A stretch of 32,000 bases of DNA from Propionibacterium ruminifibrarum (GCF_900289195.1 NZ_OMOH01000004.1:120001-152000); one strand, 5' to 3'; positions 8,402 through 25,261 are shown, numbered from the stretch's first letter. The notes: generated by a model not told the origin, from the sequence alone. Program-made: numbers and translations.

Positions 8402-10468
8402 TCAGGCGGCTACGGCCTCTGCCTCAGGGGCCGCCTCCTGCTGGGACTCGGCGTTCTTCTTGCGCCAGGCCGCGCCCTTGAGCACGGTGACGAGCAGGCC
8501 CGCGACGATCGCGCCGACAACGATCGACAGCACGAAGGCCCAGAACCTCTCGATGGCGAAGAAGACGAAGATGCCGCCGTGCGGGGCCATGGACGCGGCG
8601 CCGAGCGCCATGGACAGGGCACCGGTGACGGCGCCGCCAGCCATCATCGAGGGGATGACGCGCAGCGGGTCGGCCGCGGCGAACGGGATGGCGCCCTCGG
8701 AGATGAACGAGGCGCCGAGCAGCCAGGCCGCCGTGCCGTTCTCGCGTTCGGCGGGCGTGTAGTACTTCGGGCGCAGGGCCGTCGACAGGGCCAGGGCCAG
8801 CGGGGGCACCATGCCGGCCGCCATCGTCGCGGCCATGACGCGCATCGAGCCGACGTTGTTGATGTCCAGGTTCGTCGTGGCGAACAGGTAGGCGGCCTTG
8901 TTGATCGGGCCACCCAGGTCGAAGCACATCATGAGGCCGAGGATGATGCCCAGGATGATCGCCGAGGTGCCGCTCATGCCCGACAGAGCGTTGTTCATCG
9001 TCGTGGTGAGCCAGGCCAGCGGCCGGCCGAGGACGACGTACATGAGGCCGCCGGAGATCAGCGAGCCGACGAGCGGGATGACGGCGACCGGCATGAGGCC
9101 GCGCAGCCAGCGCGGCGCGTTGAGCGTGGTGAACCAGTAGGCGACGAAGCCGCCGACCAGGCCGCCGACGATGGCGCCGATGAAGCCGGCGCCGGTCAGG
9201 GACGCGATCGCGCCGGCGACGAAGCCGGGCACGATGCCGGGACGCTCGGCCAGGCCGAAGCCGATGTAGCCGGCCAGTGCCGGCAGCAGGAAGCCGAAGG
9301 CTGCCTGCCCGACCGCGAAGAGCACGGCGCCGATGTAGGTCATGAGGGCCGAGCCGGCCAGGGCGTGGCCGGTGGCCTCGGGCAGGTTCGCGAGGCTGTT
9401 CTCCAGGGCGATGTCCAGGCCGTTGTCGGCGATCTCGTAGCCGCCGAACAGGAAGCCGAGGGCGATGAGCAGACCGCCGGCGGCGACGAAGGGGATCATG
9501 TACGAGACGCCGGTCATGAGGGACTGCTGGATGCGCTTGCCCCAGCCGAGCTGGGAGGCCTCCTCCTCGGCGTCGGCGCTCGCCCCCTCGGCGACGGCGT
9601 GCACCTTGTGGGCGTTGGGGTCGCCGATGGCGGCGATGGCCTCGGCGACCATGACGTCGGGCTCGTTGACGGCGCGTTTGACGCCGGACTCGATGACGGG
9701 CAGGCCGGCGAAGCGGTTGCGGCCCTTGACGCCCACGTCGGTGGCGAAGATGACGGCGTCGGCGGACTTGATGACCTCGGGCGGCAGGGGCTCGTAGCCG
9801 GAGGAGCCCTGGGGCTCGGCCTGCAACTCGACGCCGGCCTTCTTCGCCGACTCGGTGAGGTAATCGGCGGCCATGTAGGTGTGGGCGATGCCGGTGGGGC
9901 AGGCGGTGACGGCGACGATGCGGGCCTTGGGGGCCTCGCCGGACGCGGCCGGGGCCTCATCGGCCGCCTCGGTAGCGGCCGCTGCGGCCTGGGGGGCCGG
10001 CTCGGCCGCGGCGGGCTGCGGTTCGACGATGCCGCGCACCAGGGTGACGATCGCGTCGGCGTCGGGGGCCTCGCGCAGTGACTGCACGAAGTCCTTCTTG
10101 ACCATGGCGCGGGCCAGTTTGGTGAGCAGCTTCATGTGCTCCTCGCCGCCGTCGGCGCCGGCCGCGATGAGGAAGACGATGTCGGCCGGGCCGTCCTTGC
10201 CGCCGAAGTCGACGGGATTGGCGAGCCTGGCGAAACCGAGCGAGGACCTGCTCACGGCCTCGGAGCGGCAGTGCGGGATGGCGAAGCGGCCGGGCATGCC
10301 GGTGGGGAACTTCTCCTCACGGGCCAGCGCATCGCGTGTCAGACCCTCGGCCTCGGCACGCCCCGCCGCGGCGATGATGCCGGCCAAGGCGGTGATGACC
10401 TCGGTCTTGGTCGAGCCGAGATCGACGTCGAGAGCGACGATCTCCGGCTCGATGATGGACTCGGACAT
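8402..10468 (-). CDS. fruA: PTS fructose transporter, fused EIIA-EIIB-EIIC
   Basis: The N-terminal EIIA(Fru/Mtl type) has FAIPHCRS. After an Ala/Pro linker comes EIIB with VAVTACPTGIAHTYMAA, followed by a polytopic EIIC. The start is placed at the second ATG (MSESII), 7 nt after AGGAGA. The ORF track begins 6 nt earlier, at 10474. Confidence 0.95.
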   Translation of the reverse strand: MSESIIEPEIVALDVDLGSTKTEVITALAGIIAAAGRAEAEGLTRDALAREEKFPTGMPGRFAIPHCRSEAVSRSSLGFARLANPVDFGGKDGPADIVFLIAAGADGGEEHMKLLTKLARAMVKKDFVQSLREAPDADAIVTLVRGIVEPQPAAAEPAPQAAAAATEAADEAPAASGEAPKARIVAVTACPTGIAHTYMAADYLTESAKKAGVELQAEPQGSSGYEPLPPEVIKSADAVIFATDVGVKGRNRFAGLPVIESGVKRAVNEPDVMVAEAIAAIGDPNAHKVHAVAEGASADAEEEASQLGWGKRIQQSLMTGVSYMIPFVAAGGLLIALGFLFGGYEIADNGLDIALENSLANLPEATGHALAGSALMTYIGAVLFAVGQAAFGFLLPALAGYIGFGLAERPGIVPGFVAGAIASLTGAGFIGAIVGGLVGGFVAYWFTTLNAPRWLRGLMPVAVIPLVGSLISGGLMYVVLGRPLAWLTTTMNNALSGMSGTSAIILGIILGLMMCFDLGGPINKAAYLFATTNLDINNVGSMRVMAATMAAGMVPPLALALSTALRPKYYTPAERENGTAAWLLGASFISEGAIPFAAADPLRVIPSMMAGGAVTGALSMALGAASMAPHGGIFVFFAIERFWAFVLSIVVGAIVAGLLVTVLKGAAWRKKNAESQQEAAPEAEAVAA

Positions 10469-10494
10469 GAACATTTCTCCTAACCAGGATGTTC

Positions 10495-11505
10495 TCAGGA
10501 TGGGATGTGTTCGGCGCGCTGCTGGGGCCGGGCGCCTTCGGTGGGTGTCTGGACGGCCGTGACGCTGGTCTGCACCTGCGCCGCGAGGTCGGGGTCGGGA
10601 ATGGTGGATCCGGGCAGGCCGGCTGCGGCCGTGCCCCAGGCGACGGCCCCTGCCAGGGCCGCGTCTTCATCGGCGTCGCCGGTGAGCCCGATGAGCAGGC
10701 CCGCCAGGGAGGAGTCCCCCGCTCCGACGGTCGAGCGCACCTCGATGGGCGCGGAAACGGCGTGCCAGGCGCCGCTCGCGGTGACGAGCAGGGCGCCCGC
10801 GCCGCCGAGGGTCACCATGACGCGTTCGATGCCCCGGGCGACCAGGCCGCGGGCCCCGTCGAGGACGGCGTCGAAGTCGCCGCGCGCGGCGGCCTCCTCC
10901 ATGGCCTCGCCGTCGCCGCCGCAGATCTGGGCGAGTTCGGTGGAGTTGGGCTTGATCAGGTCGGGGGCGGCCTGCGGCAGCGCCTCGGCCAGTGCCAGGA
11001 GCGGGGCGTCCGAGGTGTCGACGCAGACCCGGGCGCCGCGGGCGCGGATCCTGGGCACCATCTGGGCGTACCAGTCGGCGGGGAGGCCGGGCGGCAGGGA
11101 GCCGGTCATGACGACCCAGTCGGCCCCGTCGGCCGCCGCGAGCACGGCGTCCTCGAGCCGGGCGCGTTCCGCCTCACTCAGCTCGGCCCCGGGCTCGTTG
11201 AACTTGGTGGTGGTGCCGTCGGGCTCGGTGACCGTCAGGTTCGTCCGCACCGCGTGGGTGACGGGCACCCCGCGATGGTCGATGCCGGCCGCGACCATGC
11301 CCTCGAGCAGCGGGTCGTGCTCGGGGGCCGGGACGACGGCCAGCGTCGGGACGGCCGCATTGTGCAGGGCGCGCGAGATGTTGACCCCCTTGCCGGCTGC
11401 GACGGTGGTGATGTCGGTCAGGCGGTGCACCTGGCCGCGGACGATGGGCGCGGACAGGGCCGCGGAACGGTCGAGGCTCGGGTTGGGAGTGACTGTGACG
11501 ATCAT
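10495..11505 (-). CDS. fruK: 1-phosphofructokinase (PfkB family)
   Basis: MIVTVTPNPSLD..., GKGVNISR, and the C-terminal STVGAGDSSLAG anion-hole/ATP motif are present. The start overlaps the stop of the upstream DeoR gene by 4 nt (ATGA). Confidence 0.93.
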   Translation of the reverse strand: MIVTVTPNPSLDRSAALSAPIVRGQVHRLTDITTVAAGKGVNISRALHNAAVPTLAVVPAPEHDPLLEGMVAAGIDHRGVPVTHAVRTNLTVTEPDGTTTKFNEPGAELSEAERARLEDAVLAAADGADWVVMTGSLPPGLPADWYAQMVPRIRARGARVCVDTSDAPLLALAEALPQAAPDLIKPNSTELAQICGGDGEAMEEAAARGDFDAVLDGARGLVARGIERVMVTLGGAGALLVTASGAWHAVSAPIEVRSTVGAGDSSLAGLLIGLTGDADEDAALAGAVAWGTAAAGLPGSTIPDPDLAAQVQTSVTAVQTPTEGARPQQRAEHIPS

Positions 11506-12263
11506 GCGCAGACCACCTTCAGGTCCTTGTTCTGGATGAGTTCGAGTTGACGGTGTGGGATGCCGGTGTCGGTGATGAGGACGTCGATGTCGTCGAGTGT
11601 GGCGAAACGCACTGTGGACTCGGCGCCGATCTTACGGGAGTCGGCGAGGACGACGACGGTGCGGGCCGCGCCGATCATGGCTGTCTTCGTGGCGGCCTCG
11701 TCGACGTCGGGGGTCGACAGGCCGTGCTCGACCGAGAGCGCGTTGGTCCCCATGAAGGCCACGTCGACGCGCAGCCGCTCGAACTCGCCCACATTGCCGA
11801 CGGTGGCGGCCGTCGTGCCGCGCAGCCGCCCGCCGACGAGGCGCACCTCGCAGCTCGTGCGCGCCCCGACCTGGGCGGCGATGGGGGCCGAGTTCGTGAA
11901 GACGATGAAGTGCGCGTCCGCCGGCAGGTGGGCCGCCAGCCGCGCGGCCGAGGAGCCGGCGTCCAGCAGGACCGTGCCGCCGTCCGCCGGCAGGTGTTCG
12001 ACCGCCTTGAGGGCCATGCGCTCCTTCTCGTCGACCGCGGAGGCGTCGCGGGTGTCGAGCGGGGCGTCACCCAGTTGGTCGAAGTCGGCGGGGATCGCGC
12101 CGCCGTGGACGCGCCGCAGCAGCGCCTTGGCGTCGAGCGTGTCGAGATCGCGTCGGATCGTCTCGGGAACGACGCCGAGATGGGCGGAGGCCTCGGCCAC
12201 CGAGACGCGGCCGTTCTGGCGCGCGTGCTCGACGAGCCACTTGTGGCGTTCCTGCGGATACAT
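11502..12263 (-). CDS. fruR: DeoR-family transcriptional repressor of the fructose operon
   Basis: It has an N-terminal wHTH (RVSVAEASAHLGVVPETIRRDLDTL) and a DeoR C-terminal sugar-phosphate sensor domain. It is first in a fruR-fruK-fruA arrangement. The SD ggaggtg precedes the ATG. Confidence 0.9.
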   Translation of the reverse strand: MYPQERHKWLVEHARQNGRVSVAEASAHLGVVPETIRRDLDTLDAKALLRRVHGGAIPADFDQLGDAPLDTRDASAVDEKERMALKAVEHLPADGGTVLLDAGSSAARLAAHLPADAHFIVFTNSAPIAAQVGARTSCEVRLVGGRLRGTTAATVGNVGEFERLRVDVAFMGTNALSVEHGLSTPDVDEAATKTAMIGAARTVVVLADSRKIGAESTVRFATLDDIDVLITDTGIPHRQLELIQNKDLKVVCA

Positions 12264-17519: not shown

Positions 17520-18566
17520 TCAGGGCTCGACGGTGACCTTGATGGCCTCACCCTTGGCCACGACGTCGAAGGCGTCGAGGGCGTTCTCCAGCGGGATGTG
17601 GCGGGTGATGAGGTCGGCGACGGGCACCTGGCCCGAGGCGATGTAGGCCAGGGCGCGCTTGTTGTGCTCGGGGGCCGAGCCGTTGGCGCCGTGGATGTGC
17701 AGCTGGCGGTAGTGCACCAGGTTGGAGTCGCAGGTGATCGTCGGGTTGGTCTTGGGCAGCCCGCCGAAGAACGAGATGCGACCGTTGCGGGCGGCCATCG
17801 CCAGCGCCTGCTCCTGCGCCACGTTGGCCGGGGTGGCGGTGATGATGACGTCGGCGCCGCGGCCGCCGGTGAGCTCCATCACCTTGGCGACGACGTCCTC
17901 GGTGGAGCCGTCGATCGTGATGTCGGGGCTGACGGCCTGGGCGGACATCGCCAGCCGCTCGGCGTTGATGTCGATCATGACGATCGTCCCGGCCTTGTGC
18001 ACGCCGCGGGCGATGCGGGTGTGCATGCAGCCGATCGGGCCGGCGCCGAAGATGACGACGAAGTCGCCCTCCTCGATACCGAGCTGCTCCTGGGCATTGA
18101 TGGCGCAGGCGAAGGGCTCGGCGGCGCTCGCCTCGTCGTAGCCGACGCCGTCGGGGATCTTGTTGAGGCCGTCGACCTTGAGCACCTCGGCCGGCACGAT
18201 CATGTACTCGGCGAAACCGCCGTCGTACTGGTAGCCGACGCTGGTCTGGTTCTGGCAGACCTGCATCCAGCCCTTCCGGCACTCGTAGCACTCGCCGCAG
18301 GGCACGGCGGCGATCGACTGGACGCGGTCGCCGATCTTCCAGTCACCGGTCACATCGGCGCCGATCTCGACGATCTCACCGGCCACCTCGTGGCCCATCG
18401 TCGTGACGCGGGTGATGTTCTGGTGCCCGTTGTGGAAGATCTTCACGTCGGTGCCGCAGGTGGAGCAGTTCTTCACCTTGATCTTGATCTGGTCGGGCCC
18501 GCACTCGGGCTCGGGGACGTCCTCGAGCCTGACGTCCTCGGGGGCGTGGAAACGCAGTGCCTTCAT
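17520..18566 (-). CDS. Zinc-dependent MDR-family polyol(-phosphate) dehydrogenase
   Basis: The catalytic Zn ligands are present (CSTCGTD, GHEVAGE), as are the structural Zn motif CGECYECRKG and the Rossmann motif IFGAGPIG. The start lies 5 nt after the mtlA stop, and the SD ggaggagg sits inside the mtlA 3' end. Confidence 0.9.
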   Translation of the reverse strand: MKALRFHAPEDVRLEDVPEPECGPDQIKIKVKNCSTCGTDVKIFHNGHQNITRVTTMGHEVAGEIVEIGADVTGDWKIGDRVQSIAAVPCGECYECRKGWMQVCQNQTSVGYQYDGGFAEYMIVPAEVLKVDGLNKIPDGVGYDEASAAEPFACAINAQEQLGIEEGDFVVIFGAGPIGCMHTRIARGVHKAGTIVMIDINAERLAMSAQAVSPDITIDGSTEDVVAKVMELTGGRGADVIITATPANVAQEQALAMAARNGRISFFGGLPKTNPTITCDSNLVHYRQLHIHGANGSAPEHNKRALAYIASGQVPVADLITRHIPLENALDAFDVVAKGEAIKVTVEP

Positions 18567-18571
18567 TGTGT

Positions 18572-20536
18572 TCAGTCCTCCTCCGGTGCAAGGAGTTCCT
18601 GCACCTGTTCAACGGTGGTGGCGGTGCGCAGCTGCTCCGCCCTGTTCTTGTCGGCCAGCACGCTCGCGAGTGCTGACATGATGCCGATGTGCTCGTCCGA
18701 GGCCGAGGCGATGGGGATGGCCACGTAGCACGTCTTGCCGTTCCAGTCGACGCCGTCGGGGAACTGCAGGAACCCCAGGGCGGCGTGCTTGATGTGGGCG
18801 CGGGCCTCGTTGGTGCCGTGCGGGATCGAGAAGCCCTCGCCCATGTAGGTGGACACCTGGCCCTCACGCTCGATCATGCCATCGACGTACTCGGGGCCGG
18901 CGGCCTGGACGTCGACGAGCACCTGACCGGCCTGGCGGACGGCGTCGTCCTTGTCCACGGCGCTCAGACCCAGCTTGATGGCCTCCGCGGGCAGGATGTC
19001 GGGCGCCAGGGACTTCTTCTTGCGGGTGGCCCGGGCGGCAGCGACCGCCACGGCGGCGTCGCCGTCACCGGCGGCAGGGGCCTCGGCGGCCTGCGAGCCA
19101 CCGGAGTGGGCGGCCTTGACCTTCTCCTCGACCTCGGTGAAGACCGGGTCGCCGACGTAGTTCTTGAACGGGACGACGGCGGCCTGCGGCACCTTGGCGT
19201 GGGCCCGTTCGGCCAGGCCCTCCTGGGTGAGGACGACGGTGGCGTCGGACGGGATCGAGTCGATCGGGGTGTGGATGACCTCGACGCCGTACGGAGCCAG
19301 CTTCTTCTTCATGGTCGAGGCGACCATGACCGAGGAGCCCATGCCGGCGTCGCAGGCGATGACCAGCCTGGTGAGGGAGGCCGCGTCGAAATCGCCGCTG
19401 GGGAGCGAGGCGGCCGTTTCGGAAGCGGTCGCCTCCGCTGCAACGGCACCGCCCTCCTCGGCGGCGGCCGCCGCCTCGTCCTTCTTCTTGTCGGGGCGGA
19501 TGAGCGCCGCGGCGACGAGGAACGAGACCGCAGTGGCGACGACGAAGTCGGCGATCATCGGCAGGTAGCCGCTGCGCGGGCACATGAGGAACCAGGCGAT
19601 GATCGAGCCCGGCGAGGCCGGGCCGGACAGGCCGGCCCCGAGCAGGGTGCCAACGGCCAGGCCGGACATGGCGCCGGCGATGGTGGCGAGGATCGTCTTC
19701 GGCTTCATGAGCACGTAGGGGAAGAAGATCTCGTGGATGCCGCCGAACAGGTGGATGATGACCGCGCCGGGCACGGACTGGCGGATGTGCTTGGCGCCGA
19801 AGGCCCAGTAGGCCAGCAGCAGGCCGAGGCCGGGGCCGGGGTTGGACTCCACCATGAACAGGATCGACTGGCCGGCGGCGTGCACCTGCTCGGTGCCGAG
19901 CGGGGTGAGGATGCCGTGGTTGATCGCGTTGTTGAGGAAGAGCACCTTGGCGGGCTCGACGAGGATCGAGGCCAGGGGCAGCATGTGGTGACCGATGAGG
20001 AAGTCGACGCCGGCGGCCATCCACCCCATGAAGAGGTTGACCAGCGGGCCGATGCCCTGGTGGCCGAGGATGGCCAGGAGCAGGCCGAGAATGCCCAGCG
20101 AGAAGTTGTCGACGAGCATCTCGAAGCCGGAGGGGACCTTGGACTCGAGGAAGCCGTCGATCTTCTTGAGCAGCCACGCCGCGAGGGGGCCCATCACCAT
20201 GGCGCCGATGAACATGGGGATCTCGGCGCCGACGATGACACCCATCGTGGCGATCGCGCCGACGACGGCGCCACGGGTGCCGTGGACGGTCCGGCCGCCG
20301 GTGTAGCCGATGAGTAGCGGGAGTAGGTAGTTGAGCATGGGATCGCTCAACGTGACGAGGTTCTCGTTGGGGATCCACCCGGTCGAGATGAACAGGGCCG
20401 CCACGAAGCCCCAGGCGATGAAGGCACCGATGTTCGGCATGATCATCCCGGCGAGGAAGCTGCCGAAACGCTGGATCGAGGCACGGACGCCCCTGCCCTC
20501 AAGGTTCTTGTTGACTGTTGCGTCAGGTAGAGACAT
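18572..20536 (-). CDS. mtlA: PTS mannitol-family transporter, fused EIIC-EIIB-EIIA
   Basis: The N-terminal EIIC(Mtl) reads VQRFGSFLAGMIMPNIGAFIAWG. EIIB carries VIACDAGMGSSVM, and the C-terminal EIIA carries FSIPHGTNEAR. The SD aggaga precedes the ATG. Confidence 0.93.
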   Translation of the reverse strand: MSLPDATVNKNLEGRGVRASIQRFGSFLAGMIMPNIGAFIAWGFVAALFISTGWIPNENLVTLSDPMLNYLLPLLIGYTGGRTVHGTRGAVVGAIATMGVIVGAEIPMFIGAMVMGPLAAWLLKKIDGFLESKVPSGFEMLVDNFSLGILGLLLAILGHQGIGPLVNLFMGWMAAGVDFLIGHHMLPLASILVEPAKVLFLNNAINHGILTPLGTEQVHAAGQSILFMVESNPGPGLGLLLAYWAFGAKHIRQSVPGAVIIHLFGGIHEIFFPYVLMKPKTILATIAGAMSGLAVGTLLGAGLSGPASPGSIIAWFLMCPRSGYLPMIADFVVATAVSFLVAAALIRPDKKKDEAAAAAEEGGAVAAEATASETAASLPSGDFDAASLTRLVIACDAGMGSSVMVASTMKKKLAPYGVEVIHTPIDSIPSDATVVLTQEGLAERAHAKVPQAAVVPFKNYVGDPVFTEVEEKVKAAHSGGSQAAEAPAAGDGDAAVAVAAARATRKKKSLAPDILPAEAIKLGLSAVDKDDAVRQAGQVLVDVQAAGPEYVDGMIEREGQVSTYMGEGFSIPHGTNEARAHIKHAALGFLQFPDGVDWNGKTCYVAIPIASASDEHIGIMSALASVLADKNRAEQLRTATTVEQVQELLAPEED

Positions 20537-20704
20537 CGAATCTCCTGATGAACGGTGCCGCGAACGGCAGGATCTGCTTTGATCTGTGTTCGATTCTGGT
20601 TGTGTTGGTTTCTGTTGTCAAGGGGACAGAACCAGAAACTTATTCGGGCAAGCTCCAACATGGATGCGCAGACCGGCACCCCACCCCGCAACCGACGCAC
20701 CAAG

Positions 20705-20945
20705 CCACCCCCGCCCCGCGCGCGGAACCCGAGGTGGCGCTGGTCGCATTCATTGCGGACGCACGGGCCCCCGCCCCGGGCGAAGACCCGAGGGGCGGCG
20801 CCACTGGCGGGTGTCGGAGGCGACGGGCCCATACCCCGCGCGAAGCCCCAGGATCCAACGGCGTCGGGCACAGCCCCTGCACGATCGCCCACGCCCCGCG
20901 CCGGACCCGAGGGCCCTTTTGGCGCAGGCGCAGCCGTTGCGGGCA
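20705..20945. repeat. Degenerate 60-bp periodic repeat, about 4 units, in a non-coding tract
   Basis: The core CCCCG(C/G)G-CG(A/G)A-CCCGAGG recurs with its CCCC at 20714, 20774, 20834 and 20894, an exact 60-nt phase. The flanking GGGCCC/CGCCC stretch is also conserved. The inter-core segments are only weakly similar. Confidence 0.65.
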
Positions 20946-21305
20946 CAGCACCGCCGCAACCCAGACGGGTCAACAGCGCCACCGCGCCCGCCCTCTGCGA
21001 GCACGGCGTACAGGAGCGCGATCCGCACGGGCGGGGACGATGGTCACGGCATCGGATCACGCGGCACGCAGCCGCCCGGCTCCCAGATCGGAGCGCCGGG
21101 CGAGTCGGGTGACCGCCCGGCCCCGGCGACCACGGACGCACCACACCCGGGGAGCCCCCGCACCCGGGGCAATCGGCACAGGCCACCCGGGGTGAGGCTC
21201 TGCGCCCTGGGCGAAATCACCGCGTGGCGGCACAGGGGTCTCACCCCCGGAAAAGCCGCTCACCTTGGTATCGCCGAGCGTACTAAGTACGGTAATTCTG
21301 GGTAC

Positions 21306-21333
21306 TTGATCCACTATCACACCGTGATATAAA
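21306..21333 (+). promoter_or_regulatory. Candidate sigma70-type promoter with a palindromic operator in the spacer
   Basis: The elements are TTGATC (-35, 21306-21311), a 16-nt spacer, and TATAAA (-10, 21328-21333), about 34 nt upstream of the ATG at 21367. The palindrome TATCAC-acc-GTGATA (21315-21329) overlaps the spacer and the -10 element. Confidence 0.45.
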
Positions 21334-21366
21334 TTACGTACACCCCGTTCCGAGTGAAAACATATT

Positions 21367-22863
21367 ATGCGTACTCCAACAATGAATACGATCATCCGGA
21401 CCATAACACAGAAAACGAAGGAATCCCCCTCCGCGAAGTCGGTTTTCGACGCCGAACGCACTCTTTCCAGGGAAGATCTCGCAGCACTCGCCGATACCAT
21501 TGCGGCACGCCTGCCGACCGACTGCGATCGTGTCGGGATCGTCATGGATCATTCCGTTGAAATGATCGCCGCCATACTCGCCGTACTGAAGAAGGGTGCG
21601 GCATATGTGCCGGCAGAACCATTCCTCCCGACCGAACGCATCCGGTTCATGATGCGCGACTCCGGGGCCCAGGTCGTCATCACGAACTCGCATCACGAGG
21701 AACTGCTCAACGGCTTTGATCTCCTGATCGTCGACCGCGGCCTACCGGTGGCCACCGATGCCGGCTACGCGACGACGACAGGCAACCAGGACCAACTGGC
21801 CTACATTCTGTACACATCGGGGACGACCGGCAGACCAAAAGGAATCGCCGTCACTGATGCGAATGTCAGCCACTACGTGCGGGCCTTCCAGAACGAGTTC
21901 CACCCGACCGATTCCGACATCATGCTGCAGCACTCGGTGTGCTCCTTCGACATATTCGTCGAGGAAGTGTTCGGCGCGCTGCTGTCCGGAGCCGCACTCG
22001 CGATCCCGAGCGTCGCGGAGCGCAACGACATCGGCTCGCTGATGGGTTTCATCGAGAAGAACCACGTGACCATGCTCACCGGCTTCCCGTATCTGCTGCA
22101 GGAAATGAATGAGCTCCCGGCGATCCCGCCGAGTCTGCGGCTGCTGATCAGCGGCGGCGACGTGATCCGGGAGGCCTATGTGACGAATCTCGTGGACAGG
22201 ATCCCGGTGTACAACACCTACGGCCCCACCGAGACGACCGTGTGCGCCTCCTACTACAACTGCTCGACCGGGAAGGCCCTGCCGGACGGCACCTACCCCG
22301 TCGGCAAACCCATCCTGGGCGTCGACGTCGTGGTCATGGACGAGGCCGGAAACATCGTGCCCGACGGCCGCCCCGGAGAACTGTGCATCCTGGGCGGTGG
22401 CGTCTCGAACGGCTACGTCGGCGACCGCGAGAAGGAGAACGAGGCCTTCGTCACCCTGGCGGACGGCCGGCGGATGTACCGCAGCGGGGACCTCGGCTAC
22501 GTGCTCCCGGACGGCAACATCGCCTTCCTGCACCGCAAGGACACCCAGATCATGATCCTCGGCAAGCGGGTCGAGGTCAGCGAGGTGGAGAACGTCCTCA
22601 TGCAGTCCGGACTCGTGCGGCAGGCCCACGTCAGCCCGAGAACGGACGACCGGGAACTGTCGTACATGGTCGCCTACGTCGTGCCGGAGCGGGAGGAGAC
22701 GACGACGGACGAGATCAGGACCTATCTGAGCGACTACCTGACCGACTTCATGATTCCCGAGTTCATCGTCAACCTGGACTCGCTCCCGCTGACCCCCAAC
22801 GGCAAGGTGGATGTGGACGCTCTTCCCGCCACACCGCGCAGGACGGCCCCGTGCCCGAGCTGA
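21367..22863 (+). CDS. Stand-alone NRPS-type amino acid adenylation enzyme (A domain only, no carrier domain)
   Basis: All A-domain cores are present: LKKGAAYVP (A2), LAYILYTSGTTGRPKG (A3), FDIFVEE (A4), YNTYGPTETT (A5), GELCILGGGVSNGY (A6), YRSGDLG (A7), GKRVEVSEVE (A8), FMIPEF (A9) and LPLTPNGKVD (A10). The protein ends about 20 aa after A10. An alternative start is ATG 21382. Confidence 0.9.
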   Translation: MRTPTMNTIIRTITQKTKESPSAKSVFDAERTLSREDLAALADTIAARLPTDCDRVGIVMDHSVEMIAAILAVLKKGAAYVPAEPFLPTERIRFMMRDSGAQVVITNSHHEELLNGFDLLIVDRGLPVATDAGYATTTGNQDQLAYILYTSGTTGRPKGIAVTDANVSHYVRAFQNEFHPTDSDIMLQHSVCSFDIFVEEVFGALLSGAALAIPSVAERNDIGSLMGFIEKNHVTMLTGFPYLLQEMNELPAIPPSLRLLISGGDVIREAYVTNLVDRIPVYNTYGPTETTVCASYYNCSTGKALPDGTYPVGKPILGVDVVVMDEAGNIVPDGRPGELCILGGGVSNGYVGDREKENEAFVTLADGRRMYRSGDLGYVLPDGNIAFLHRKDTQIMILGKRVEVSEVENVLMQSGLVRQAHVSPRTDDRELSYMVAYVVPEREETTTDEIRTYLSDYLTDFMIPEFIVNLDSLPLTPNGKVDVDALPATPRRTAPCPS

Positions 22864-22874
22864 CGATCACGCAG

Positions 22875-23342
22875 ATGACCCCCTCGGACATCACCCTGCT
22901 CGTCGCGCTGAGGATGGAGGTGCTCTCCCACGTGTTCGAGCAGGAGAAGAGGGGCATGTCTGAGCGGGAATGGGAGGACCTGGCCGAGCAGAACCGGGAA
23001 TATTATCTCCGGGAACTCCCCGCCGGGAGGCACCTCGCCTGCGTCGCGTATCTGGGCAATGATGTCGTCGGTTGCGGCGGCGTCTGCTTCCAAAGAGAAC
23101 TGCCCTCCCCCGACAACAGGAGCGGGCTGTGCGCCTATCTCATGAACATCTACACCAGAGCGGAGTTCCGGGGCAGTGGGTTCGCCCGCCGGATCTGTGA
23201 GTGGCTGATCGAGAAGGCACGAGCCGCGGGTGCCGGGAAAATCTACTTGGAGAGTTCAGCCGACGGCCGGGCGCTTTACCACTCGCTCGGCTTCCACGAC
23301 ATGGCGGACTACATGGCGCTGCCGACCGCGACCCCGGCCTGA
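22875..23342 (+). CDS. GNAT-family N-acyltransferase
   Basis: The acyl-CoA binding motif A is present (RAEFRGSGFARRICEWLIEKA), as is the C-terminal ALYHSLGF. The ATG at 22875 is 11 nt after the A-domain stop. An in-frame GTG at 22851 would instead overlap that gene by 13 nt. Confidence 0.85.
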   Translation: MTPSDITLLVALRMEVLSHVFEQEKRGMSEREWEDLAEQNREYYLRELPAGRHLACVAYLGNDVVGCGGVCFQRELPSPDNRSGLCAYLMNIYTRAEFRGSGFARRICEWLIEKARAAGAGKIYLESSADGRALYHSLGFHDMADYMALPTATPA

Positions 23343-23582
23343 CCCGGCACCCATGCCGGTTCCCAGCCACGGGCCTCGGCCGCCCAGCAGCCGCTCGGCC
23401 CGCGGCGAATGCCCCGCCCCGTTCCGATTGCCGGTACCGGCCGTGCCGATTCTGCCGGGCGCCTTCCCGGCGTTCGACGCCCGAGCCGGGGTTCCGGCCC
23501 CGGCGCGTCGCGTATGATGCGGGAAGCGGCAGCGCCCTGACGATCCCTCCCCGCCGCGCGGTGCGGGGAACCGAGGAGCACA

Positions 23583-23987
23583 ATGGCTGACAGCACCGGT
23601 GACTACATGTCGTACGAGGAATATCTCACCCGGGTCAAGGAGGGTGTGCTGACCGAGAGCGGGAACTGCCCGGTGACGCCCTTCCTGCTCATGGTGCAGG
23701 GCAAGTGGAAGGCTCAGCTGCTGTACGAGATGTGCATCTACGACAGTGTCCGCTTCGGCCAGCTCAAGAGGGACCTGCCGGGCATCACGAACACCATGCT
23801 CACCAGGAGTCTGCGCGAACTGGAAGAGGACGGACTCATCAAACGCGAACAGTTCAATGAGATCCCTCCGCACGTCGAGTACTCCTTCACCGACATGGGG
23901 AAGGACCTTCTCCCGGTTTTCTACGCCATCACGAACTGGGGCTTCCGGCACGAGCAGGAACTCTACAAGGACGCGCCCGATGAGTGA
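23583..23987 (+). CDS. HxlR-family winged-helix transcriptional regulator
   Basis: CPVTPFLLMVQGKWKAQLLYEM, RFGQLKRDLPGITNTMLTRSLRELEEDGLIKRE and VEYSFTDMGKDLLPV form the canonical HxlR pattern. The SD gaggag precedes the ATG. Confidence 0.88.
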   Translation: MADSTGDYMSYEEYLTRVKEGVLTESGNCPVTPFLLMVQGKWKAQLLYEMCIYDSVRFGQLKRDLPGITNTMLTRSLRELEEDGLIKREQFNEIPPHVEYSFTDMGKDLLPVFYAITNWGFRHEQELYKDAPDE

Positions 23988-24681
23988 ACACGACAACCAG
24001 CCGGGGCGACGTGCCATGCGCGTCGGCGGAAAGGACGTGACGGTCTTCCCGGCCACCGGGCAGGACGCGCCCCTCGTCCTGCTCCACACGGTCAGGGGCG
24101 AGGGCCCTCTCGTGCACGATGCCGTGCGCGAGCTGACCGATTCCCCCTTCTCCCTGGCCGCCATCGGGGATCTGAACTGGGACGACGACATGACGCCATG
24201 GCCGATCCCGCCGATCTCGGCCGATGATTCCCCGTGCGCCGGGCTCGCGGATCACCACCTCGCCACGCTCACCCAGGAGATCCTCCCCGAGGTCGGGGCA
24301 GGATTGCCCTCCGAGCCGTCCTTCATCGCCCTGTCGGGGTATTCGCTCGCCGGGCTCTTCGCCGTCTACGCCCTGTACCGGACAGACGTCTTCGACCGGG
24401 TCGCGAGTGCCTCCGGCTCGTTCTGGTACCCGGGATTCATCGACTTCGCGACGACGCACGAACCCGTGAAAAAGCCCGACTGCGTGTACTTCTCGCTCGG
24501 CGACACCGAGGAGAACAGCCCGTACCCGATCCTGCAGCCCGTCCGAACCAATACGGAACGGCTTGCCGAGTGGTACCGCGGGCAGGGCGTCAGGACGACA
24601 TTCGAGCTGAACCCGGGGGATCATTTCAGGCAGGGCGTCGAGCGCCTGGCGAAAGCCATCGCCTGGGTGCTGGACCACTGA
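23980..24681 (+). CDS. Alpha/beta-hydrolase of the 'putative esterase' type (Fes/IroE/esterase-D-like fold)
   Basis: The nucleophile elbow is LSGYSLAGLF (GxSxG). A downstream acidic residue lies in SLGDTEE and a His in NPGDHF. The ATG at 23980 overlaps the HxlR stop by 8 nt (ATGAGTGA). Confidence 0.8.
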   Translation: MSEHDNQPGRRAMRVGGKDVTVFPATGQDAPLVLLHTVRGEGPLVHDAVRELTDSPFSLAAIGDLNWDDDMTPWPIPPISADDSPCAGLADHHLATLTQEILPEVGAGLPSEPSFIALSGYSLAGLFAVYALYRTDVFDRVASASGSFWYPGFIDFATTHEPVKKPDCVYFSLGDTEENSPYPILQPVRTNTERLAEWYRGQGVRTTFELNPGDHFRQGVERLAKAIAWVLDH

Positions 24682-24835
24682 CGCCGCTCAGCGGGTGCGT
24701 GCGCCGAATCGGCCCCGGAACGCGCCCGGTCCGCCGCCTGCACCAGCCCGGTCCGTGCGGGCCGGGCGCGCCGCGGGAACAACAGGACCGGCTGCTTTCT
24801 GCGGCCCGGATCGGCCGGTGCGGCCGGGCGTGCCC

Positions 24836-25261
24836 TCACATCTCGATGGCGCGTGGCCTGGGGGGTCTGCGGTACCGGCTGTAGTCGACCTCGCCGCCCG
24901 GGCCGGCCAGGAAGACCCGCTGGGCCTCCTCCTGCACCTCGGTCATCCGCGCCATGAGTTCGGCCATCTGGTCGAGTTTGCGCTGCATCTGGTCGAGCTC
25001 GTCCTGCATGTCGATGATGCGCCGGATGCCGTTGAGGTTGATGCCCTCCTCCTGCGACAGCTGCTGGATCAGCCGCAGCCGGGAGATGTCCCGCGGCGAG
25101 TAGCGCCTGCCCCGCCCCTTCGCGCGTCTGGGCACGACGAGACCCATGCGGTCGTAGCCGCGCAGGGTCTGCGGGTGCATGCCGGCCAGTGAGGCCGCCA
25201 CCGAGACGGTGAAGATCGGGGCGTCCGGGTCGATGACCTGGGGCAGTCTGTCCTCGAACAT
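24836..25261 (-). CDS. hspR: Heat-shock repressor HspR (MerR family)
   Basis: The MerR-type HTH reads FTVSVAASLAGMHPQTLRGYDRMGLVVPRR. It is the last gene of the dnaK-grpE-dnaJ-hspR operon. The SD gaggtga overlaps the dnaJ stop. Confidence 0.92.
   Translation of the reverse strand: MFEDRLPQVIDPDAPIFTVSVAASLAGMHPQTLRGYDRMGLVVPRRAKGRGRRYSPRDISRLRLIQQLSQEEGINLNGIRRIIDMQDELDQMQRKLDQMAELMARMTEVQEEAQRVFLAGPGGEVDYSRYRRPPRPRAIEM

Follow-up and report, generated by a model that had tools for sequence, protein, structure and literature searches.

The DNA analyzed here is a stretch of 32,000 nucleotides with a GC content of ~70% from Propionibacterium ruminifibrarum, a rumen species (NZ_OMOH01000004.1:120001-152000); the whole stretch is called the window in the following. 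At 21367-24681 it carries a cassette of four genes, encoding a stand-alone adenylation (A) enzyme of the nonribosomal peptide synthetase (NRPS) type, a GNAT acyltransferase, a regulator of the HxlR family and an esterase. Credible genes of the window were chosen by their GC content at third codon positions (GC3), domains were called with the curated cutoffs of Pfam and NCBIfam, and fold neighbours were obtained by comparing AlphaFold2 (AF2) models with the PDB using Foldseek. An initial annotation of the window had described the A and GNAT genes as a unit of two. The pair was confirmed, but the unit is larger than proposed: it consists of four genes including HxlR and esterase, is preceded by an operator-like element, and is mobile. 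The cassette and its upstream elements comprise:

21281-21308, plus strand: conserved operator-like element TACTAAGTACGGTAATTCTGGGTACTTG with a pair of GTACT boxes spaced by 22 bp, of which the second overlaps the -35 element
21306-21333, plus strand: putative sigma-70-like promoter, -35 element TTGATC (21306-21311), 16-nt spacer, extended -10 element TGaTATAAA (21325-21333)
21367-22863, plus strand: stand-alone NRPS-type adenylation enzyme, 498 aa, without carrier domain (Pfam, NCBIfam, PDB matches, motifs)
22851-23342, plus strand: GNAT acyl-CoA N-acyltransferase, 163 aa, GTG start (PF00583, AF2 fold, locus comparison)
23583-23987, plus strand: winged-helix regulator of the HxlR/DUF24 family, 134 aa (PF01638, 95.2 bits, cutoff 20.8)
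23980-24681, plus strand: alpha/beta-hydrolase esterase, 233 aa, IroE/EstB/Fes-like (PF00756, 27.9 bits, cutoff 22)

The A enzyme matches the Pfam families AMP-binding (1.5e-69, 235 bits) and AMP-binding_C (1.3e-12, 49 bits) and passes TIGR01733, the NCBIfam model of the amino acid adenylation domain, with 346.4 bits (cutoff 317.4). All core motifs could be read in the translation: A2 LKKGAAYVPAEP, A3 LAYILYTSGTTGRPKG, A4 FDIFVEE, A5 NTYGPTE, A6 GELCILGGGVSNGYV, A7 YRSGDLG, A8 HRKDTQIMILGKRVEVSEVE, A9 LTDFMIPE and A10 PLTPNGK (residues 474-480). The protein ends 18 residues past the A10 lysine. The initial description of a 498-aa protein with the cores A2 to A10, including the A4 Asp, that stops just after A10 thus holds. 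D195 and K480 are invariant in 12/12 aligned members of the family, the LPxP linker motif is still present at residues 486-489, and all motifs for the thioester-forming half-reaction are kept. A Pfam search of the protein found no PP-binding, condensation or thioesterase domain. Its best PDB matches are the NRPS A domains LgrA, TycA, ApnA and GrsA, with DltA clearly weaker. Judged by these motifs and matches, the protein is a genuine NRPS-type amino-acid A domain with the A4 Asp.

DltA is one of the closest known enzymes, being likewise a stand-alone protein of ~500 aa related to NRPS A domains, and it aligns over the full length (PDB 7r27, 2.7e-57; 3fcc and 3dhv, ~6e-55). It differs in that its D-Ala is passed on to DltC, a carrier, and in that DltB and DltD are its partners, whereas the window enzyme is closer to LgrA and TycA and has a lysine-like specificity code. 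The DltA equivalog cutoffs were missed by a wide margin (TIGR01734, 257.8 bits versus 559.85; NF003417, 265.1 versus 476), and none of the related loci examined contains an MBOAT, DltC or DltD gene. Models of acyl-CoA synthetases all remained below cutoff as well, the best being NF004837 (long-chain-fatty-acid--CoA ligase) with 198 bits versus 476. The A protein thus reaches the thresholds of neither DltA nor the acyl-CoA synthetases, with which, according to the initial annotation, it should not cluster if the finding is to hold.

The Stachelhaus code, which had been suggested as a guide to the substrate, was derived from pocket positions mapped from the motifs, and the mapping was checked on a residue-level alignment to the Val and Gly modules of LgrA. 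At the equivalent positions LgrA reads D-I-.-N-L-.-I-I-Y-K in the Gly module and I-G-G at 299/301/322 in the Val module, which resembles the canonical codes for Gly and Val. The window enzyme has D195, I196, E199, T238, I261, G263, T284, V292, C293 and K480. The code of the family is DIE(S/T)IGTVCK, with each of the ten positions either invariant or S/T. The eight-residue signature of the lysine module BacB-M1 is DAESIGSV (PMC3207962). DIE(S/T)IGTV is identical to it at 6/8 positions in most members and at 5/8 in the window enzyme, which carries T238; the other exchanges are conservative, and position 239 retains its acidic residue. From this similarity to the lysine code of BacB, the predicted substrate is a basic amino acid of the lysine-like kind.

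The junction between the A and GNAT genes had been described with two possible GNAT starts and interpreted as translational coupling, and its coordinates were confirmed: the TGA stop of the A gene lies at 22861-22863, an ATG follows 11 nt downstream (22875), and an in-frame GTG at 22851 overlaps the A gene by 13 nt. In the AF2 model the first beta-strand (residues 4-8 of the 163-aa form) precedes the ATG, as do the N-termini of homologues in the alignment; GTG 22851 is therefore the true start, and the two genes overlap by 13 nt. The 163-aa form was also picked by gene callers on four near-identical contigs.

The GNAT protein matches PF00583 (Acetyltransf_1) at 1.8e-14 with 54.5 bits (cutoff 20.7). 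Its AF2 model has a mean pLDDT of 94.3 and the canonical order of strands and helices, the CoA pyrophosphate-binding motif R-x-x-G-x-A is present as R-G-S-G-F-A, and Tyr143 is conserved. In the PDB, 693 GNAT structures match the model at E <= 1e-3. The top match, 3mgd, is an uncharacterised protein solved with acetyl-CoA bound; next come acetyltransferases of cationic small amines, namely PaiA, SSAT, DpA, AAC(3)-Ia with related aminoglycoside enzymes, thialysine N-epsilon-acetyltransferase and the tabtoxin-resistance protein.

Three explanations had been offered for the pair: a route of two enzymes leading to a small aminoacyl or N-acyl molecule, protection of the cell by a GNAT of the MccE/RimL type, and loading of a carrier encoded elsewhere in the genome. 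The first fits best of the three. In the second, the GNAT would acetylate a toxin resembling an aminoacyl-adenylate at its alpha-amino group, and the A enzyme would be incidental or would make the toxin. Such GNATs exist (PMC4010828), and the cassette looks like accessory cargo of the resistance type on mobile elements. The GNAT itself gave no support for this explanation: rimI was the only NCBIfam model matched, with 22.4 bits, far below its cutoff of 86.4, and the 50 best folds include no MccE or RimL, the lone RimI-type structure being found at rank 49. Moreover, no MccB-like, MccF-like or peptide-precursor gene is present, and the strict order of A and GNAT and their fusions, described below, would be left without reason. 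We consider immunity of this kind highly improbable.

Relatives were collected by a pattern scan with one genome per species, which yielded 517 confirmed relatives; the locus counts given here refer to the best 80 of these 517. Four syntenic metagenome contigs carry a 99%-identical cluster; otherwise the nearest A proteins have an identity of 55-66% and stem from Lachnospira, Butyrivibrio, Oribacterium, Selenomonas and other gut and rumen Bacillota. Eggerthellaceae, Treponema and other Spirochaetia, Endomicrobia and a gammaproteobacterial metagenome-assembled genome (MAG) are also represented among the 80 loci. Further copies were found in Duncaniella (Bacteroidota) and on the 344-kb plasmid pCF002-344 of Clostridium estertheticum, where the reference annotation is generic, as it is for family members in general. 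Thousands of related proteins are present in metagenomes. The family is confined to gut and rumen anaerobes and occurs in at least five phyla, and the cassette is a horizontally mobile unit of two to four genes that crosses phyla.

Co-occurrence of the pair outside this genome, on which the initial annotation had made its proposal depend, was found in hundreds of genomes. The GNAT gene lies directly 3' of the A gene in 79/80 loci, and in the 80th the contig ends 192 bp after the A match. A and GNAT are separate genes in 72 of the 80 loci, with junctions mostly between -7 and +4 nt and an ATGA overlap of 4 nt in 21, and they are fused into a single protein of 600-680 aa in seven. When the A domains were placed in a neighbour-joining tree, calculated without bootstrap support, the fusions fell at four or more distinct places. 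In the fused proteins the GNAT starts ~12 residues after the A10 lysine, right after the kept LPxP A-T linker motif, and stands where the thiolation (T) domain stands in an NRPS module. An exhaustive search with a GNAT profile returned 152 representative clusters at E <= 1e-30, among which the A domain is the sole recurring fusion partner. Other fusions (with thiazole kinase, transglutaminase, DUF4303, M50 or a tandem GNAT) were set aside as heterogeneous low-scoring outliers, some of them possibly gene-calling artefacts. The pairing of A and GNAT is far beyond chance, and the two form an obligately paired, sometimes fused unit.

The position of the fused GNAT raises the question whether the second half-reaction could run over free coenzyme A (CoA). 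In such an aminoacyl-CoA relay the A enzyme would make lysyl-CoA from free CoA, and the GNAT would take lysyl-CoA instead of acetyl-CoA as its donor and move the aminoacyl group to an amine or hydroxyl. The GNAT would then be the catalyst that forms the bond, and CoA would serve as a diffusible carrier. A domains are able to form aminoacyl-CoA in vitro. The window enzyme keeps every motif for the thioester half-reaction, the fused GNAT sits exactly in the place of the T domain behind the retained LPxP motif, and the repeated tight coupling or fusion would channel an unstable aminoacyl-CoA. A precedent has been proposed for gougerotin, where GouK and GouJ would form an aminoacyl-CoA and then transfer the aminoacyl group by an acyl-CoA N-acyltransferase (PMC11641026, PMC12835213). 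This is the sole named pathway we found in which amino-acid activation is combined with a GNAT-type transferase in place of a carrier and condensation domain. It modifies the initial statement that no pathway can be named for an A/GNAT pair, which stands insofar as no characterised match was found. GouK and GouJ are a proposal made from the sequence of a 15-gene nucleoside-antibiotic cluster in Streptomyces, and GouK, compared here by description, is reported as having a domain that binds acetyl-CoA, not an NRPS A domain. Our data and the cited papers gave no example of a GNAT that uses an aminoacyl-CoA. In addition, the nearest GNAT structures are acetyl-CoA enzymes, 3mgd itself having been crystallised with acetyl-CoA, and the role of the esterase is explained no better. 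We regard the relay as unlikely, although it is the main rival of the interpretation favoured below.

Absence of a carrier was examined at several levels. The initial annotation had reported that the window encodes no carrier, condensation or thioesterase domain, and Pfam indeed found no PP-binding, condensation or thioesterase domain in any of the GC3-supported genes. PP-binding (PF00550) is also absent from the precomputed Pfam annotation of every related locus examined, and no carrier gene is adjacent to the pair in any genome examined. An all-against-all clustering of every open reading frame (ORF) within 6 kb on either side in the 80 loci revealed no further family that recurs widely, and in particular no recurring carrier, condensation or thioesterase gene; the short recurring "families" it produced are antisense shadow ORFs inside the A gene. 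Searches of 12,386 stop-to-stop segments with hidden Markov models and phmmer, using carrier sequences as queries, gave no match, which is a weak test because no positive control was included.

These data bear on the third of the initial explanations, in which a conventional stand-alone A domain loads a carrier or NRPS module encoded elsewhere and the GNAT is a tailoring or resistance enzyme. Stand-alone A enzymes acting in trans are well known (DltA, EntE), and the retained thioester-forming motifs and LPxP would suit such a role. A carrier elsewhere is nevertheless unlikely, since the cassette, which has reached a plasmid and at least five phyla, brings no carrier with it and since the GNAT takes the carrier's position in the fusions. 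No carrier-sized family recurs within the 6 kb on either side, scores against the DltA models are far below threshold, and dltBCD genes are absent from the loci. Taking these points together, we judge loading in trans to be very improbable.

A further reading, absent from the initial annotation, is that the GNAT might regulate the A enzyme. It would acetylate the A10 lysine (PLTPNGK) and inactivate the enzyme, in the way that Pat and AcuA act on AMP-forming CoA ligases, and sirtuins would reverse the modification. Enzymes of the ANL superfamily are classic targets of reversible lysine acetylation by GNATs (PMC4053389, PMC11619455), and the A10 motif P-x4-G-K is present. In ~10 Clostridiales loci, the A gene is directly preceded by two to four tandem genes for CobB-like sirtuins and a TIGR02452 (PARG-like) gene; such neighbours might point to a connection of the cassette with reversible acylation or with ADP-ribosylation. 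The loci concerned, all from Clostridiales MAGs, are L066, L068-L070, L072, L074, L085, L086, L090 and L091, and the linkage is limited to this one lineage. AcsA-AcuA and Pat are known systems with a genetic link between an ANL enzyme and the GNAT that regulates it through the A10 lysine. The cassette GNAT lacks a Pat/AcuA signature: no such family was matched in Pfam or NCBIfam, no enzyme of the Pat/AcuA type occurs among the 50 nearest folds, and small-molecule acetyltransferases dominate that list. It would be hard to explain why an enzyme should have been joined covalently, 1:1 and repeatedly, to the protein that inactivates it, and the esterase, HxlR and the function of the A enzyme would be left unexplained. 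A regulatory pair is thus quite improbable.

The esterase gene starts within the HxlR gene, overlapping its stop by 8 nt. Ser122 (in GYSLAG), His215 and Glu177 are invariant, and the acid of the predicted Ser-His-acid triad is either Glu177 or Asp175. The AF2 model (pLDDT 95.9) has siderophore esterases as its top 29 PDB folds throughout (EstA/EstB, IroE-like, PfeE, BesA, Fes), while sequence likeness to Fes and EstB is marginal (E ~1e-3). Siderophore esterases of this type cleave esters of N-acylated amino acids. No gene for siderophore synthesis, a siderophore receptor or an iron regulator accompanies the cassette in the loci examined. An esterase is encoded within 3.5 kb of the A gene in 61/80 loci, and HxlR, counted over the same distance, in 33/80. 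With A, G, H (or h) and E standing for the A, GNAT, HxlR and esterase genes, the gene orders in the 80 loci are AGE (27), AGHE (12, fusions included), hEAG (6), hAGE (5), EAG (5) and others.

In Actinomyces (L097:5556-9964 and L098; CP027862.1 and FQTT01000009.1) a 53% identical homologue of the esterase is found without A and GNAT genes. There it is translationally coupled to an importer of the ATP-binding cassette (ABC) type for polar amino acids (SBP_bac_3, permease, ATPase) and followed by a DUF3027 gene. This linkage fits an amino-acid-derived substrate of the esterase.

HxlR is the most conserved of the four cassette proteins, with 62-81% identity to homologues in other phyla. Among 38 homologues, the N-terminal Cys29 (CPV) is conserved in 95% and Cys51 in 89%. 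In the HxlR/YodB/HypR class an N-terminal cysteine is the sensor of electrophiles or oxidants.

Upstream of the cassette, 58 nt before the A start, lies the 28-nt operator-like element. Its pattern, TACTWNRT-N9-CTGSGYACTTG, is common to loci of different phyla, and the Propionibacterium copy is nearly identical to copies in Clostridia MAGs (GGTATCGCCGAGCGTACTAAGTA versus GGTATCACCGAGCGTACTATGTA). In ~0.9 Mb searched on both strands, the element was found in 35/80 loci, with one copy each and always upstream of the first gene of the operon. It is present in 30/33 HxlR-positive loci versus 5/47 HxlR-negative loci, so that regulator and element are linked. Binding of HxlR to the element and the nature of the signal are suggested by this linkage and the conserved cysteine. 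The overlapping putative promoter was read by eye and not reported by a consensus scanner; a TTGA...TATAAT arrangement also follows the element in other loci. The palindrome TATCACaccGTGATA (21315-21329), a perfect 6-3-6 palindrome in the spacer and -10 region of the promoter, was considered as the operator and rejected: it is specific to the Propionibacterium copy, and what is conserved elsewhere is GTACT-N17-GTACT.

The cassette lies on an acquired island, for which the following features were recorded:

20623-24835, no strand assigned: acquired island carrying the cassette, absent from the hspR / mannitol-PTS intergenic region of P. australiense
20623-21270, no strand assigned: GC-rich (74%) left part of the island, ~650 bp, without assignable gene (periodicity, Pfam, Rfam)
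24714-24777, no strand assigned: GC-rich inverted repeat with 21-nt arms (81% complementary) and a 22-nt loop, candidate bidirectional terminator

When the window was compared with P. australiense (L092) by blastn, homology stopped at 20622 and resumed at 24836, 4213 bp replacing ~455 bp; in P. australiense, hspR and the phosphotransferase system (PTS) gene are direct neighbours. The island has a GC content of 0.63-0.65, compared with 0.69-0.72 in the flanks, and GC3 is 0.80-0.85 in the cassette genes versus 0.91-0.97 in host genes. Both flanks belong to the core chromosome, with the mannitol PTS and a Zn-dehydrogenase on one side and hspR-dnaJ-grpE-dnaK on the other. A recent transfer, which the low GC content might suggest, was rejected: the cassette of the closest relative (L021) itself has 63% GC, and a diverged allele occupies the same site in another Propionibacterium. 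This allele, ~85% identical over cassette and flank (metagenome contigs L095:1-1565 and L096; ERZ1029114, SRR32376327) and with an esterase 74% identical at the protein level, lies at the same hspR-proximal site, while the closer relative P. australiense has no cassette. Because of this allele in a more distant Propionibacterium and the GC content of the closest relative's cassette, the island is probably an old acquisition that has since been lost in P. australiense.

The left part of the island contains degenerate direct repeats of 25-27 nt (20710/20888 and 20763/20823). A gene in 20623-21270 was considered and rejected, coding periodicity being absent and its two long ORFs without Pfam match. 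An Rfam search of the non-coding parts of the island for structured RNA was empty, and nothing convincing in the way of terminal repeats or att sites was found at its edges. The inverted repeat at 24714-24777 lies between the esterase stop and the stop of the convergent hspR gene and is tentatively interpreted as a bidirectional terminator; a terminator scan did not report one. Just outside the island, in the mannitol-PTS upstream region, a 16-nt tandem repeat (TGTGTTCGATTCTGT, 2.2 copies, 20585-20618) lies just inside the segment common with P. australiense and beside a promoter-like site on the minus strand (20621-20593). Elsewhere the window carries a DeoR-PfkB-PTS (fructose-type) operon at 8402-12263 and the mannitol PTS with the Zn-dehydrogenase at 17520-20536. 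Compared with the window, P. australiense has an additional block with a zeta-toxin-like gene upstream of dnaK (L092:5059-6597).

On the flanks of the cassette in Bacillota lie tyrosine integrases, a relaxase with MobC, transposases and a gene for an aminoglycoside nucleotidyltransferase. In 15/80 loci the cassette adjoins TIGR04470 ("radical SAM mobile pair protein B"), and pairs of ABC exporter genes occur in 13/80. In one locus TIGR04470 is paired with a DUF5131 protein (L011:10-1607), and in another YjbR/MmcQ-like and RNase T-like genes come after it, with integrase genes on either side (L007:10980-13159); these neighbours look like hitch-hiking cargo of integrative elements. A DNA-repair theme was discarded, since the radical-SAM neighbour, which had looked SplB-like, is the mobile-element marker TIGR04470 and the YjbR and RNase T homologues occur in one or two loci only. 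In Duncaniella sp. (L099:141-4533, JAIDSN010000397.1) a gene for an 839-aa UvrA paralogue, which lacks the profile segment expected to hold the UvrB-binding domain, is inserted in the operon between the A and GNAT genes, and UvrA homologues 59-70% identical to it adjoin the cassette in four other lineages (L025, L058, L062, L087). UvrA2-type proteins are resistance factors against DNA-binding toxins. Although such genes recur in five lineages, they are too rare to serve as a clue to function. Anti-phage defence was likewise rejected, as PADLOC gave no match for the four proteins or for a fusion of A and GNAT and a phage collection contained no family member.

The architecture is firmly established: an NRPS-type A domain that has no carrier is obligately coupled, and in several cases fused, to a GNAT, mostly with an IroE-like esterase and often with HxlR and its operator, and the unit is mobile in gut and rumen anaerobes. 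The interpretation we favour, and hold tentatively, is that this mobile operon under an HxlR-type regulator is a three-enzyme module for carrier-independent aminoacyl conjugation. The A enzyme would adenylate a lysine-like basic L-amino acid and pass the aminoacyl group directly to the hydroxyl or amine of a small non-protein acceptor. The GNAT, coupled to the A enzyme, would then use an acyl-CoA, most simply acetyl-CoA, to N-acylate a free amino group of the product. The IroE/EstB-like esterase would hydrolyse the (N-acyl)aminoacyl ester, for turnover or release. HxlR would bind the operator overlapping the -35 element and switch the operon on a thiol-reactive signal. As to the physiological benefit, our leading guess is a xenobiotic or toxin specific to the habitat of these gut and rumen bacteria.

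Several points weigh against this module. The specificity code predicts a substrate class only, and two to three of its eight positions differ from the Lys code. Fold likeness is a poor guide to the substrates of GNATs and alpha/beta-hydrolases. The chemistry after adenylation is entirely inferred, and an operon that both makes and hydrolyses one bond needs an extra rationale. Finally, only A and GNAT are strictly required: the esterase is missing within 3.5 kb in 19/80 loci and HxlR in 47/80. The combined alternative, in which the CoA relay is joined with mobile spread in gut and rumen anaerobes, an electrophile-sensing switch and protection against a habitat-specific toxin, is slightly less probable still than the relay taken alone. 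If the relay were true, it would be an uncharacterised route to aminoacyl conjugates that is independent of both NRPS and tRNA and in which CoA replaces the phosphopantetheinyl arm.

Individual steps of the favoured conjugation module have counterparts in known systems. The biosynthesis of streptothricin/nourseothricin involves stand-alone A enzymes for beta-lysine, and ORF19 is one of them. NpsA, from the same group of enzymes (PMC11641026), and the ANL amide-bond synthetases resemble the cassette enzyme in using a basic amino acid and, according to our model, in carrier-free transfer. By their description, these enzymes differ in being part of large biosynthetic clusters, and none is known to have an obligate or fused GNAT or to travel in a mobile cassette of three to four genes. 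In the fungal fusarinine/triacetylfusarinine C (TAFC) pathway, ornithine-derived aminoacyl esters are N-acetylated (SidG is a GNAT for N2-acetylation) and hydrolysed by an esterase of the EstB type, and in structure EstA and EstB come closest to the esterase of the cassette. There a complete NRPS with carriers makes the esters, and the system serves iron uptake under iron regulation, whereas an iron regulator, a transporter and an enzyme that forms hydroxamates are all absent from the cassette. In mycothiol synthesis (MshC/MshD) and in the N-acetylglutaminylglutamine amide (NAGGN) synthase Ngg, ATP-dependent amino-acid ligation and GNAT acetylation together give an N-acetyl-aminoacyl molecule for stress protection. 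The ligases are class I tRNA-synthetase-like and ATP-grasp enzymes and not ANL enzymes or A domains, and no sequence relationship is known. An analogy with puromycin (Pur6 ligase, Pac GNAT, NapH hydrolase) was dropped, Pur6 having no recognisable domain and probably using aminoacyl-tRNA (PMC11641026).

No description of the A-GNAT family, of the pairing or of its HxlR or esterase context was found in the open-access literature, although an existing account could have been missed. The components are ordinary, and their combination is apparently unmatched by any characterised pathway we found; the A-GNAT proteins would represent carrier-independent adenylating ligases with a GNAT partner. Genome-mining rules that demand a carrier domain would probably miss the family. 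Its chemistry would explain how an A domain completes the second half-reaction without a carrier. The family is large. Its restriction to gut and rumen and its crossing of phyla on mobile DNA point to strong habitat-specific selection, for example by a dietary, host or microbial toxin, and in livestock and human microbiomes the cassette may yield a small metabolite or a new mechanism of detoxification or resistance.

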